DNA of 16,845 bases from Escherichia coli (lineage in GTDB: Bacteria; Pseudomonadota; Gammaproteobacteria; Enterobacterales; Enterobacteriaceae), in assembly GCF_003334315.1 (NCBI RefSeq), contig NZ_QOWR01000073.1; one strand, 5' to 3'. This document shows positions 1-13,391 of this stretch, in pieces (the stretch's first letter is position 1; each line of letters opens with the position of its first letter). Both the position numbers and the translations under genes were made by a program. Below the pieces are notes generated by a model that ran no database searches, had not been told where the DNA came from, and saw only the letters and a list, made by a program, of their open reading frames with translations.

Positions 1-357
1 GTCGGGGCTAAATCGCGCCAGCGCTGGCTGTTTTACGCGTATGACAGGCTCCGGAAGACGGTTGTTGCGCACGTATTCGGTGAACGCACTATGGCGACGC
101 TGGGGCGTCTTATGAGCCTGCTGTCACCCTTTGACGTGGTGATATGGATGACGGATGGCTGGCCGCTGTATGAATCCCGCCTGAAGGGAAAGCTGCACGT
201 AATCAGCAAGCGATATACGCAGCGAATTGAGCGGCATAACCTGAATCTGAGGCAGCACCTGGCACGGCTGGGACGGAAGTCGCTGTCGTTCTCAAAATCG
301 GTGGAGCTGCATGACAAAGTCATCGGGCATTATCTGAACATAAAACACTATCAATAA
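1..357 (+). CDS. insB: IS1 transposase InsB, C-terminal part (5'-truncated by window edge)
   Basis: Open frame from base 1 to TAA at 355-357; the ORF-track 88 aa segment (91..357) is the in-frame tail of InsB. Confidence 0.85.
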
Positions 358-372
358 GTTGGAGTCATTACC
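1..372 (+). mobile_element. Partial IS1 insertion sequence (3' portion, including the right terminal inverted repeat; 5' part lies outside the window)
   Basis: Frame-1 translation from base 1 reads the InsB C-terminal region (...[14 protein letters not shown]...[55 protein letters not shown]...HYQ*). The sequence ends with the characteristic IS1 terminus ...aaacactatcaataagttggagtcattacc at 343-372. Recognised from memory of IS1, not by search. Confidence 0.85.
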
Positions 373-4833: not shown

Positions 4834-4952
4834 GCCGGATGCGGCGTGAACGCCTTATCCAGCCGACATGTGGCAGCGGTTGTAGGTCTGATAAGACGCG
4901 CAAGCGTCGCATCAGACGTTGATTGCCGGATGCGGGGTCAACGCCGCATCCT
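4834..4952. repeat. REP/BIME cluster (three REP-like palindromic units)
   Basis: gccggatgcggcgtgaacgccttatccagc (4834-~4863), inverted unit taggtctgataagacgcgcaagcgtcgcatcagac (4881-~4916), third unit gccggatgcggggtcaacgccgcatcc (4925-~4951). Lies between the convergent hemW and yggM 3' ends. Confidence 0.8.
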
Positions 4953-4978
4953 GCTACAAATCGTGCACTATATCAAAC

Positions 4979-5986: not shown

Positions 5987-6067
5987 CCGAAAACCCTCGC
6001 GCAGAATAATTTATTCCGGTGATTATCATTAGGGTAATTAAAATTGGCAATGGACGTGAGTCTGAAG

Positions 6068-6094
6068 TGAAAAAGCCCCGGCACGATACCGGGG
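6068..6094 (-). terminator. Rho-independent terminator downstream of ansB
   Basis: Minus-strand transcript carries hairpin ccccggtatcgtgccgggg (perfect 7 bp GC-rich stem, plus coordinates 6076-6094) followed by cttttt, starting about 8 nt after the ansB stop. Confidence 0.7.
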
Positions 6095-6102
6095 CGAGGC
6101 GA

Positions 6103-7149
6103 TTAGTACTGATTGAAGATCTGCTGGATCTGCTGCGGATCTTTGGTTTGCGTCAGAGCCAGTTGCAGCAGAACGCGCGCTTTTTGCGGGTTCAGCGTGC
6201 CAGAGGCGACGAAGCCGTATTTCGCATCATCCACTTCGGCATCCTGAGTGGTAGCGCCCGTCGGTACGCGGGAAGAACGCACGACTGCAGTACCGGTTTT
6301 CGCGGCGGTCGCCAGCGTGTCGAACACAGATTTATACAGGTTGCCGTTACCCACACCAGCGCTAACGATGCCATCATAGCCCGCATCTACCAGTGCTTTA
6401 GCCGGAAGATCGGATGCGTTAGCGTAGTTATAAACAATGCCGACTTTCGGCAGTTCATTCAGCTTAGAGACATCGAATGGCGTGTCGCTGGTATGCTTAC
6501 GTGCCGGGGTACGCTGGTAGTCAATCTTACCGTTGTGAATGTAACCCAGAGGACCGTAGTTAACAGACTTGAAGGTCGCTACGTCGGTGGTGTTGGTTTT
6601 GGTGACGTCACGGCCATCAAGCACGGTGTCATTCATCACTACCAGCACGCCACGGTTGGCGGAGGCTTTATCAGCTGCGGTCACTACCGCGTTATACAGG
6701 TTGAATGGACCGTCTGCGCTCATGGACGTGGACGGGCGCATTGCGCCGACCATCACCACCGGTTTGTCGCATTTCACCGTCAGGTCGAGGAAGTAAGCGG
6801 TTTCTTCCATCGTGTCGGTACCGTGGGTAATGACGAAGCCGTCGGTTTTATCGCAGTCGGTGTTAATTTTTTTCGCCAGTGTCAGCCAGACATTATCGTT
6901 CATGTCCTGGGAGCCGATATTCACTACCTGCTCGCCTTTAACGTTCGCAATGTCCTTCAGTTGCGGCACCGCATTAACCAGATTTTCTACGCCAACTTTA
7001 CCCGCTGTGTAGTTAGATTTGGTTGCGGAGTCACCACCACCGGCAATGGTCCCGCCGGTTGCTAAAATGGTGATATTGGGTAATGCCAATGCTGCACCAC
7101 TAAAACCCATAACCAGTGCGGCAAGTGCCGTCTTTTTGAAAAACTCCAT
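6103..7149 (-). CDS. ansB: Periplasmic L-asparaginase II
   Basis: 348 aa ORF MEFFKKTALAALVMGFSGAALALPNITILATGGTIAGGG...; signal peptide followed by the asparaginase active-site motif TGGTIAG. Confidence 0.95.
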   Translation of the reverse strand: MEFFKKTALAALVMGFSGAALALPNITILATGGTIAGGGDSATKSNYTAGKVGVENLVNAVPQLKDIANVKGEQVVNIGSQDMNDNVWLTLAKKINTDCDKTDGFVITHGTDTMEETAYFLDLTVKCDKPVVMVGAMRPSTSMSADGPFNLYNAVVTAADKASANRGVLVVMNDTVLDGRDVTKTNTTDVATFKSVNYGPLGYIHNGKIDYQRTPARKHTSDTPFDVSKLNELPKVGIVYNYANASDLPAKALVDAGYDGIVSAGVGNGNLYKSVFDTLATAAKTGTAVVRSSRVPTGATTQDAEVDDAKYGFVASGTLNPQKARVLLQLALTQTKDPQQIQQIFNQY

Positions 7150-7179
7150 TTCATTCCTCCAGTTACGTGAACGCTACGC

Positions 7180-7220
7180 ATTATCCCTTAGCTTTGTATG
7201 GGAAAATTGACGTTAAACAA
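7180..7220 (-). promoter_or_regulatory. ansB promoter: FNR-like site (7207-7220) plus -10 hexamer (7180-7185)
   Basis: On the coding strand TTGTTTAACGTCAA matches the FNR consensus TTGAT-N4-ATCAA at 8/10 positions; GATAAT lies about 21-26 bp downstream, the spacing expected for a class II site centred near -41.5. ansB is known to be anaerobically induced by FNR (established knowledge); the site assignment itself is by eye. Confidence 0.55.
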
Positions 7221-7255
7221 TTTACAACATGAATATATTTTGGAGATCTACAAAG

Positions 7256-7271
7256 TTAGAGGCAGGTAACA
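7256..7271 (-). promoter_or_regulatory. Possible weak CRP/FNR-type upstream site of the ansB promoter
   Basis: Coding-strand TGTTAcctgccTCTAA, about 50 bp upstream of the FNR-like site (expected -91.5 geometry); poor match to TGTGA-N6-TCACA. Confidence 0.3.
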
Positions 7272-7285
7272 AAACGAAGAATTAA

Positions 7286-7310
7286 ACGGCATAAAAAAGT
7301 ATTATGCCGT
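7286..7310 (-). terminator. Putative terminator downstream of yggN
   Basis: Inverted repeat acggcataa/ttatgccgt (9 bp stem, 7 nt loop) about 15 nt beyond the yggN stop; on the minus strand it is followed by a moderately T-rich tract (ttaattcttcgtttt). Confidence 0.4.
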
Positions 7311-7324
7311 CTTAAAATAGAGGA

Positions 7325-8044
7325 TTATTTTAAATTCCCGACCAGGGCTTTGCGGCTATCTTCCAGAGTCACAACGCGGCTACAAACATCTTTGCCAAAC
7401 TGCTGGAAATCTTTTTCCTGCTTTTTCCACTCGGTTTGGATTGAGGATTGCAGCCCCCCCAGGCTTCCCAGCACATTCTGTAATGGGTTACCGCCGCTTT
7501 TCAGCACCGCTTTCGCGCCCATTTCATTAATGCTGTCCTGTAAAATTCCACCCATTGCCTGATTCACTAATTGCTGGCCTTCGGCGCGAACCTGATCAAT
7601 GGCTTTATAGTGAAACGTCAGGCCATCGCTGCGCGTTTCAATAATGCGGTTCATCTGCTCTTTCAGCTGCGCATCAAGTTTGGTCAGACGGCTGCGCATT
7701 TTGCTGCTTTCGCCCATCTCCTGAACGATAATTTTATCCAGAGCAATACGGGCTTTCTCGACGCGGCTTTTCGCGCCTTCATCAATCCACGGCAGCGTGC
7801 TGCGTAGTTCAGCCTGATAATCCTTCGCCTGCTCGCGCTGGGCGGCATTCAGGGAATATTGCTTACCGTTATACATCACGTTGCCGTCTGGCGTGATCAC
7901 CAGATTGCCGTTTTCGCCCTTCACCTGCACGGTTTGCGGGCTGACAATCACATCGTCACGCGGCGTGACGTTGCACTGGTAGTCGGCGTGAGCGGTCATT
8001 GCCGTCACTGAAAGTGCTGCCGCCAGCAGCATTTTGCGCATCAT
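7325..8044 (-). CDS. yggN: Secreted protein of unknown function YggN (DUF2884-like), N-terminal signal peptide
   Basis: 239 aa ORF MMRKMLLAAALSVTAMTAHADYQCN...; signal peptide; good SD (GAGGGAAG) upstream. Confidence 0.85.
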   Translation of the reverse strand: MMRKMLLAAALSVTAMTAHADYQCNVTPRDDVIVSPQTVQVKGENGNLVITPDGNVMYNGKQYSLNAAQREQAKDYQAELRSTLPWIDEGAKSRVEKARIALDKIIVQEMGESSKMRSRLTKLDAQLKEQMNRIIETRSDGLTFHYKAIDQVRAEGQQLVNQAMGGILQDSINEMGAKAVLKSGGNPLQNVLGSLGGLQSSIQTEWKKQEKDFQQFGKDVCSRVVTLEDSRKALVGNLK

Positions 8045-8116
8045 AGTCTTCCCTCAAGAAAAAATCAGGCCAGCATTTGCTGGCCCCAGATTGATAACAA
8101 AGTACGCGTTTTCCAT

Positions 8117-8195
8117 GCCGGATGCGGCGTAAACACCTTATCCCGCCTACTCGATCGTGCATCTTTCCAGGCCTGATAAGCGTAGCGCATCAGGC
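8117..8195. repeat. REP/BIME element (two REP units in opposite orientation)
   Basis: gccggatgcggcgtaaacaccttatcccgcctac (8117-8150) and gcctgataagcgtagcgcatcaggc (8171-8195); between the yggL 3' end and the yggN 5' end. Confidence 0.8.
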
Positions 8196-11971: not shown

Positions 11972-11987
11972 TGTTATCCACATCACA
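11972..11987 (+). promoter_or_regulatory. Candidate CRP-binding site in the nupG upstream region
   Basis: TGTTAtccacaTCACA matches TGTGA-N6-TCACA at 9/10 positions, about 150 bp upstream of the nupG start. nupG is a known CRP/CytR-regulated gene (established knowledge); this site assignment is by eye. Confidence 0.45.
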
Positions 11988-12134
11988 ATTTCGTTTTGCA
12001 AATTGGGAATGTTTGCAATTATTTGCCACAGGTAACAAAAAACCAGTCCGCGAAGTTGATAGAATCCCATCATCTCGCACGGTCAAATGTGCTTTTTCAA
12101 ACACTCATCCGCATCACGATGTGAGGAAATTAAC

Positions 12135-13391
12135 ATGAATCTTAAGCTGCAGCTGAAAATCCTCTCTTTTCTGCAGTTCTGTCTGTGGGGAAGTTGGCTG
12201 ACGACCCTCGGTTCCTATATGTTTGTTACCCTGAAGTTTGACGGTGCTTCTATTGGCGCAGTTTATAGCTCACTGGGTATCGCCGCGGTCTTTATGCCTG
12301 CGCTGCTGGGGATTGTGGCCGACAAATGGTTAAGTGCGAAATGGGTATATGCCATTTGCCACACCATTGGCGCTATCACGCTGTTCATGGCGGCACAGGT
12401 CACGACGCCGGAGGCGATGTTCCTTGTGATATTGATTAACTCGTTTGCTTATATGCCAACGCTTGGGTTAATCAACACCATCTCTTACTATCGCCTGCAA
12501 AATGCCGGGATGGATATCGTTACTGACTTCCCGCCAATCCGTATCTGGGGCACCATCGGCTTTATCATGGCAATGTGGGTGGTGAGCCTGTCTGGCTTCG
12601 AATTAAGCCACATGCAGCTGTATATTGGCGCAGCTCTTTCCGCCGTTCTGGTTCTGTTTACCCTGACTCTGCCGCATATTCCGGTTGCTAAACAGCAAGC
12701 GAATCAGAGCTGGACAACCCTGCTGGGCCTCGATGCATTCGCGCTGTTTAAAAACAAGCGTATGGCAATCTTCTTCATCTTCTCAATGCTGCTGGGCGCG
12801 GAACTGCAGATTACCAACATGTTCGGTAATACCTTCCTGCACAGCTTCGACAAAGATCCGATGTTTGCCAGCAGCTTCATCGTGCAGCATGCGTCAATCA
12901 TCATGTCGATTTCGCAGATCTCTGAAACCCTGTTCATTCTGACCATCCCGTTCTTCTTAAGCCGCTACGGTATTAAGAACGTAATGATGATCAGTATTGT
13001 GGCGTGGATCCTGCGTTTTGCGCTGTTTGCTTACGGCGACCCGACTCCGTTCGGTACTGTACTGCTGGTACTGTCGATGATCGTTTACGGTTGCGCATTC
13101 GACTTCTTCAACATCTCTGGTTCGGTGTTTGTCGAAAAAGAAGTTAGCCCGGCAATTCGCGCCAGTGCACAAGGGATGTTCCTGATGATGACTAACGGCT
13201 TCGGCTGTATCCTCGGCGGCATCGTGAGCGGTAAAGTTGTTGAGATGTACACCCAAAACGGCATTACCGACTGGCAGACCGTATGGTTGATTTTCGCTGG
13301 TTACTCCGTGGTTCTGGCCTTCGCGTTCATGGCGATGTTCAAATATAAACACGTTCGTGTCCCGACAGGTACACAGACGGTTAGCCACTAA
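12135..13391 (+). CDS. nupG: Nucleoside:H+ symporter NupG (MFS-type transporter), 418 aa
   Basis: ORF 12087..13391; start trimmed to MNLKLQLKILSFLQFCLWGSWLTTLG... (ATG 12135) with SD gaggaa 8 nt upstream; 12-TM hydrophobic profile. Confidence 0.92.
   Translation: MNLKLQLKILSFLQFCLWGSWLTTLGSYMFVTLKFDGASIGAVYSSLGIAAVFMPALLGIVADKWLSAKWVYAICHTIGAITLFMAAQVTTPEAMFLVILINSFAYMPTLGLINTISYYRLQNAGMDIVTDFPPIRIWGTIGFIMAMWVVSLSGFELSHMQLYIGAALSAVLVLFTLTLPHIPVAKQQANQSWTTLLGLDAFALFKNKRMAIFFIFSMLLGAELQITNMFGNTFLHSFDKDPMFASSFIVQHASIIMSISQISETLFILTIPFFLSRYGIKNVMMISIVAWILRFALFAYGDPTPFGTVLLVLSMIVYGCAFDFFNISGSVFVEKEVSPAIRASAQGMFLMMTNGFGCILGGIVSGKVVEMYTQNGITDWQTVWLIFAGYSVVLAFAFMAMFKYKHVRVPTGTQTVSH

Follow-up and report, generated by a model that had tools for sequence, protein, structure and literature searches.

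The global regulators FNR and CRP recognize half-sites that differ at one position, with TTGA recognized by FNR and GTGA by CRP. The promoter of ansB, whose product is asparaginase II, has long served as a model for tandem co-activation by two distinct global regulators. Studies from 1993 and 1995 are said to have shown that the E. coli ansB promoter uses CRP together with FNR, and the same studies reportedly found that the Salmonella ansB promoter uses two CRP dimers at positions equivalent to those occupied in E. coli.

Genome-scale work has since placed ansB within both regulons to differing extents. Myers et al. gave a consensus for FNR binding and found that 19 of 23 directly FNR-activated promoters have a site at −41.5 ± 4; the class II position at −41.5 is the predominant position for activation by FNR. 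Myers et al. also cited the co-dependent activation of ansB by FNR and CRP and reported no FNR ChIP-seq peak upstream of ansB in glucose-grown anaerobic cells, which the authors attributed to growth conditions. Regulation of ansB by CRP and FNR is repeated in two further papers, ansB is anaerobically induced in Shigella, and a Salmonella transcriptome paper places ansB under crp only. Shimada et al. (2011) treated ansB as a known CRP target that was not recovered by genomic SELEX.

We analyzed the intergenic spacer between yggN and ansB in a 16,845-nt stretch of E. coli DNA, hereafter called the window. With a probability of about 0.93, this spacer is an activator-dependent σ70 promoter for ansB, in which FNR acts from a class II site and CRP from a weak upstream site and the yggN terminator separates the two transcription units. 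The ansB control region is already known, and the region described here is real but ordinary. We describe its geometry, its conservation among relatives, and the distribution of FNR-type and CRP-type half-sites in its proximal box across genera.

RESULTS

Genomic context of the yggN-ansB spacer

The window is collinear, starting at position 373, with positions 3093580 to 3110424 of E. coli K-12 MG1655, and the gene coordinates of the two agree. The exact yggN-ansB intergenic spacer occupies positions 7150 to 7324 (175 bp) and is flanked by two genes that both lie on the minus strand (Table 1). The 401 bases around the spacer matched all 5,426 of 5,426 complete E. coli genomes, in which the flanking genes are annotated as yggN and ansB. 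With this annotation and that of MG1655, the gene names initially given to this locus are right. Scanning the spacer against Rfam returned no RNA family.

Outside the IS1 end, the window carries 101 single-base changes relative to MG1655. Three of the differences fall within positions 7140 to 7330 (on the coding strand, T for C at 7229, T for A at 7206, and A for G at 7194); the difference at 7206 directly flanks the FNR box, and the FNR core, the CRP core, and the −10 hexamer are unaffected. The spacer of the window was matched at an identity of at least 99% by 197 of the 5,426 E. coli records, indicating that the window carries a minority allele of the promoter. Relative to MG1655, the IS1 insertion lies 35 nt downstream of the yqgF stop codon, and the terminal inverted repeat of the element ends at position 372.

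Table 1. Features of the yggN-ansB spacer and neighboring elements, in window coordinates
Feature	Position	Strand	Description
IS1 element end	1–372		
naRNA4 (REP-derived nucleoid-associated RNA)	4885–4955	−	hemW-yggM gap; Rfam 60.9 bits, just above gathering score
ansB terminator and σ70-like yggM promoter	6022–6050 and 6075–6095	−	Strong terminator of 9 pairs, 7 G-C, then TTTTT, followed directly by the promoter; terminator ΔG −18.0 kcal/mol; 7 U in 10-nt tail
ansB	6103–7149	−	ATG at 7149–7147
ansB Shine-Dalgarno	7156–7160	−	GGAGG; from sequence
ansB transcription start (G), putative	7172	−	From −10 position and presumed −41.5/−91.5 site centers
−10 hexamer	7180–7185	−	GATAAT; from sequence; no recognizable −35 hexamer
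Proximal FNR-type box	7207–7220	−	TTGTTTAACGTCAA; 8/10 versus TTGATN4ATCAA
Distal CRP-type 22-mer	7253–7274	−	TTTTGTTACCTGCCTCTAACTT; core TGTTA-N6-TCTAA, 3 mismatches to TGTGAN6TCACA
Interrupted U-rich terminator tail	7275–7283	−	AATTCTTCG; between hairpin and CRP 22-mer
yggN intrinsic terminator hairpin	7284–7312	−	AGACGGCATAA / 7-nt loop / TTATGCCGTTT; terminator scan and RNA fold; ΔG −14.3 kcal/mol; 5 to 6 U in 10-nt tail (interrupted); 4 G-C pairs
yggN	7325–8044	−	Stop codon 7327–7325
yggL terminator	8067–8086	−	Strong; ends 19 nt before yggN ATG; ΔG −16.6 kcal/mol; 8 U in 10-nt tail
REP-like repeats	~8105–8195		Just upstream of yggL terminator
CRP-core match	11972–11987		1 mismatch; upstream of nupG
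CRP-core match	12120–12135		1 mismatch; upstream of nupG (ATG 12135)

Geometry of the ansB promoter

The proximal box differs from the FNR consensus at two positions, and 28.5 bp separate its center, at 7213.5, from the first base of the downstream GATAAT hexamer. Its agreement with the CRP core is 5 to 6 of 10 positions (5 of 10 when both are read in the same register), and its two discriminator positions are both of the FNR type (T..A). All Escherichia loci share this exact box, as does MG1655. Candidates for a −35 hexamer at 16 to 18 bp from GATAAT matched TTGACA at no more than two of six positions when counted by eye, and a promoter scan of positions 7050 to 7450 found no complete σ70 consensus promoter, both of which are as expected for a promoter that depends on activators.

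For any normal start site 6 to 8 nt past the hexamer, the center of the proximal box falls between −40.5 and −42.5, with −41.5 corresponding to a start at G7172 and −40.5 to a start at C7173. With a start at G7172, transcription would begin 7 nt past the −10 hexamer, 23 nt ahead of the ATG. The published site centers of E. coli ansB, which we take to be −41.5 for FNR and −91.5 for CRP, agree with the geometry measured here if G7172 is +1; the −41.5/−91.5 numbering is thus deduced from the position of the −10 hexamer together with these presumed centers. We found no entry for an ansB start site in the supplements of Kim 2012, SMRT-Cappable-seq, Cappable-seq, or Mendoza-Vargas 2009.

The distal box matches the CRP core at 7 of 10 positions, and matches this good occur at the chance rate in the window. 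Its center at 7263.5 is exactly 50 bp upstream of the center of the FNR box, which corresponds to −91.5 if +1 is G7172. By this spacing, the distal box would occupy a helical face competent for activation (near −91.5 to −92.5 in the deduced numbering). The failure of genomic SELEX to recover ansB fits a weak CRP site. The initial annotation had proposed an FNR-like site at class II distance from GATAAT with a weaker CRP/FNR-like pair of half-sites about 50 bp further upstream, and both proposals are borne out by these measurements. It had also matched this arrangement to the known anaerobic and catabolite regulation of asparaginase II, a match that is supported by the literature on FNR/CRP co-dependence, on ansB as a CRP target, and on anaerobic induction in Shigella.

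Two other candidates around the proximal box were rejected. A CRP-like 16-mer at 7211 to 7226, offset by 5 bp from the FNR box, has three mismatches, a quality found at the chance rate, and sits in a nonactivating register. A plus-strand promoter using TTGACG at 7209 to 7214 has no acceptable −10 hexamer at 16 to 18 bp by eye, and the promoter scan reported none.

Taking the dependence of ansB on FNR and CRP from the literature, we propose that an FNR dimer on the box near −41.5 would overlap the −35 region and contact RNA polymerase, replacing the missing −35 contact, and that a CRP-cAMP dimer on the weak site near −91.5, which faces nearly the same side of the helix, could contact an α C-terminal domain. 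Because both sites are weak, good expression of ansB would need both activators. The promoter could then act as an AND gate for anaerobiosis and the absence of glucose, a form of tandem co-activation that is often called class III. The intrinsic terminator of yggN, which ends just upstream of the CRP site, would separate the yggN and ansB transcription units.

A conserved intrinsic terminator between yggN and ansB

The hairpin downstream of yggN begins 12 nt past the yggN stop codon and forms 11 pairs, including a core 9-bp stem in which positions 7310 to 7302 pair with 7294 to 7286. RNA folding gave a z score of −5.0 for this hairpin, and none of 200 shuffled sequences was as stable. The end of the stem is 9 nt from the edge and 20.5 bp from the center of the CRP 22-mer, in keeping with the earlier placement of the yggN terminator hairpin within about 30 bp of the upstream site. 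The T run of the terminator tail extends into the first four bases of the CRP site.

A hairpin followed by a T tract directly follows the yggN stop codon in every genome in which yggN and ansB are directly adjacent, and the sequence of the stem varies between genera. When the stem was aligned across 12 distinct sequences, standard pairs formed in 95.5% of cells, and both sides had changed in 5 of the 11 pairs; as a control, sliding the partner strand by 1 to 3 columns reduced pairing to 32 to 48%. The yggN hairpin is therefore a real, conserved intrinsic terminator, and its conservation with compensatory changes indicates that termination, or insulation, between yggN and ansB has been selected. 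Outside Escherichia, the terminator has a better tail, TTTTATTTTGT, and approximately 12 more bases separate the tail from the distal box.

These observations bear on whether a substantial share of ansB transcripts might originate at the yggN promoter and read through a weak terminator, which would couple ansB to the control of yggN. Of the three terminators in this row of E. coli genes, that of yggN is the weakest, with the least stable hairpin and an interrupted U tract (Table 1), and the part of the Adams 2021 supplements covered here lists no RNA 3′ end at the yggN terminator (genome positions 3100830 to 3100889). However, low expression of yggN may explain the missing 3′ end equally well. 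The compensatory changes that keep the hairpin and T tract wherever yggN and ansB adjoin argue for selection for termination, ansB has its own conserved activator-dependent promoter, and we found no data supporting read-through. We therefore consider a substantial contribution from read-through to be very unlikely and favor transcription of ansB from its own FNR- and CRP-dependent promoter.

Fixed spacing of the promoter elements in relatives

A scan of representative bacterial genomes for AnsB yielded 80 loci. In Escherichia, Citrobacter, Salmonella arizonae and diarizonae, and Pluralibacter, ansB is immediately preceded by yggN; in three other genera, the two genes are farther apart. We aligned the 200 nt upstream of the ansB ATG in 28 sequences and observed conserved blocks at the hairpin, the distal box, the proximal box, a (G/C)ATAATGC motif, and the ribosome binding site, with less conservation in the spacers. 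Conservation was highest over the two boxes, the −10 hexamer, and the ribosome binding site; within the distal box, mean conservation was 0.84 to 0.88, compared with 0.64 to 0.72 in the flanking spacers. The (G/C)ATAATGC motif is kept in all 28 aligned sequences, and CTGGAG at the ribosome binding site is kept in nearly all of them.

The spacing of the elements is fixed to a similar degree. All 28 sequences place the center of the proximal box 28.5 bp from the −10 hexamer. Among the 27 sequences with a distal block, the centers of the distal and proximal boxes are 50 bp apart in 24 and 51 bp apart in 2; in the remaining sequence (L068), the block occupies the same alignment columns as in its relatives. 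The Pluralibacter locus is without a distal box. Across Escherichia, Citrobacter, and Salmonella, the distal block is kept as TTTTG.TA.C....CTCTAA. Thus, the architecture that the initial annotation had outlined, a class II FNR-type box with a weaker CRP-type box and an adjacent yggN terminator, is present, and relatives hold it at fixed spacing.

We also observed natural variation at the distal box. Two divergent Escherichia lineages carry one extra T after CTCTAA, which gives a spacing of 51 bp between the boxes. Most Citrobacter loci have TTTTGATATCCATCTC as their distal box, which contains, by sequence, a perfect FNR left half-site, TTGAT, shifted by 2 bp from the CRP register. In E. coli 23CRST024, an IS5-like ISKpn26 element is located between yggN and ansB at a point equivalent to window position ~7267. 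Because the match to the spacer resumes inside the left half of the box, this strain represents a natural disruption of the distal CRP box.

FNR-type and CRP-type half-sites in the proximal box

The proximal box reads TTGT-N6-TCAA in four Escherichia loci, MG1655, and the window. Among the genera with a recognizable proximal box, the FNR-type TCAA half-site occurs only in Escherichia. Every other locus with a recognizable box at the equivalent position has TCAC as the downstream half-site, a set made up of Citrobacter, Salmonella, Pseudocitrobacter, Intestinirhabdus, Buttiauxella, Cedecea, Enterobacter, Hafnia, Edwardsiella, Trabulsiella, Yokenella, and Aeromonas. In most species of Aeromonas, the CRP core is perfect (GTGA-N6-TCAC). 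The split between TCAA and TCAC fits the published difference between E. coli (CRP and FNR) and Salmonella (CRP and CRP).

Given this distribution of TCAC half-sites, with its perfect CRP core in Aeromonas, and the absence of an FNR ChIP peak at ansB in glucose-grown cells, CRP rather than FNR might bind the E. coli proximal box as well, so that two CRP dimers would drive ansB and the anaerobic effect would be indirect. However, both of the positions that discriminate FNR from CRP sites are T and A in the box of Escherichia, which matches FNR at 8 of 10 positions, against 5 to 6 of 10 for CRP. In addition, CRP is inactive in glucose-grown cells, so co-dependence on CRP would also explain the missing ChIP peak; the missing peak fits co-dependence in this way and is not positive evidence for it. 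Occupation of the E. coli proximal box by CRP is therefore highly improbable, and we retain FNR as the activator at this box.

Chance expectation

As bare consensus matches, neither box is distinguishable from chance: the window contains 12 FNR-like matches where 8.7 are expected and 62 CRP-like matches where 55.6 are expected. We also shuffled the 175-bp spacer 20,000 times, preserving dinucleotides, and examined the arrangement of the boxes. In 0.5% of the shuffles, an FNR-like box and a −10-like hexamer were separated by the class II distance, and a single shuffle of the 20,000 (0.005%) also had a CRP-like box approximately 40, 50, or 60 bp further upstream. The joint arrangement of the boxes is thus unusual relative to chance. 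Consensus hits of this quality do occur near the chance rate, but the idea that the boxes are chance matches without a regulatory role in an AT-rich spacer can be practically dismissed: the joint arrangement is this rare, the distance from proximal box to −10 hexamer does not vary among the 28 sequences, the boxes are 50 to 51 bp apart in 26, conservation peaks on the boxes, and published regulation agrees.

Neighboring features in the window

The proximity of the yggL terminator to yggN (Table 1) means that the yggN promoter must overlap or precede this terminator. In the part of the published 3′-end map covered here, a very abundant 3′ end at window position ~8063 (genome position 3101642, minus strand) corresponds to the yggL terminator. 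Two further 3′ ends in the same part of these data are antisense to yggN and fall within the gene on the plus strand, at window positions 7432 and 7628 (genome positions 3101011 and 3101207). The end at 3101207 appears in a supplement with additional, unlabeled read-count columns, which we take to be a comparison with the Rho inhibitor bicyclomycin. An antisense transcript of yggN would start either within or close to the spacer between the two genes or opposite ansB; a scan of positions 7050 to 7450 found no consensus promoter for such a transcript. We treated a plus-strand hairpin at 7118 to 7131, within the signal-peptide codons of ansB, as a chance structure.

Downstream of ansB, a σ70-like promoter for yggM (TTGCCA-17-GATAAT) directly follows the ansB terminator, a tight packing of terminator and then promoter like that between yggN and ansB. 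Farther away, the two best CRP-core matches in the window lie upstream of nupG (Table 1). The nupG gene is a CRP target recovered by genomic SELEX (Shimada et al. 2011). The match nearer to the gene, which overlaps the nupG ribosome binding site, may be due to chance. The main text of a paper on the σE regulon mentions neither yggN nor ansB, and a text search for literature naming both genes returned nothing relevant.

DISCUSSION

Our findings support a model in which the ansB promoter retains one architecture across several enterobacterial genera, consisting in order of a terminator, a distal box, 50 bp, a proximal box, 28.5 bp, and a −10 hexamer. The distribution of half-sites across genera implies that Escherichia carries the derived form of the box, the FNR type. 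We lean toward the view that the Escherichia FNR box arose from an ancestral enterobacterial CRP-type box by point changes that swapped the activator and left the spacings fixed. In the Escherichia lineage, TCAC would have become TCAA and TTGG would have become TTGT, and one or both of these point changes would have converted the proximal site from CRP to FNR. So small a number of base changes, one or two, appears to separate the two types of proximal site, which represents natural regulatory rewiring with an unchanged architecture. The difference between E. coli and Salmonella has already been published, whereas the wider phylogenetic polarity across 80 loci may not have been.

The promoter in the window is that of the described E. 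coli ansB system (Jennings & Beacham 1990, 1993; Scott, Busby & Beacham 1995), with the same locus and essentially the same sequence. Nothing substantive differs between the two, and the window carries the minority allele T7229/T7206/A7194. Compared with the simple class II FNR promoters of narG, dmsA, nirB, and nrfA, the ansB promoter likewise has an FNR box that would be centered near −41.5 and overlap a missing −35 element. Unlike in these promoters, the box of ansB is weaker, with two core mismatches, and ansB lacks an FNR ChIP peak in glucose-grown cells and, according to the literature, needs a second activator in tandem upstream. Another close counterpart is the ansB promoter of Salmonella enterica, which shares the −10 hexamer, the 28.5-bp and 50-bp spacings, a distal box that reads TGTTATCCATCTCTAA, and a terminator after yggN, but has a proximal box that ends in TCAC, of the CRP type, where that of E. 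coli ends in TCAA.
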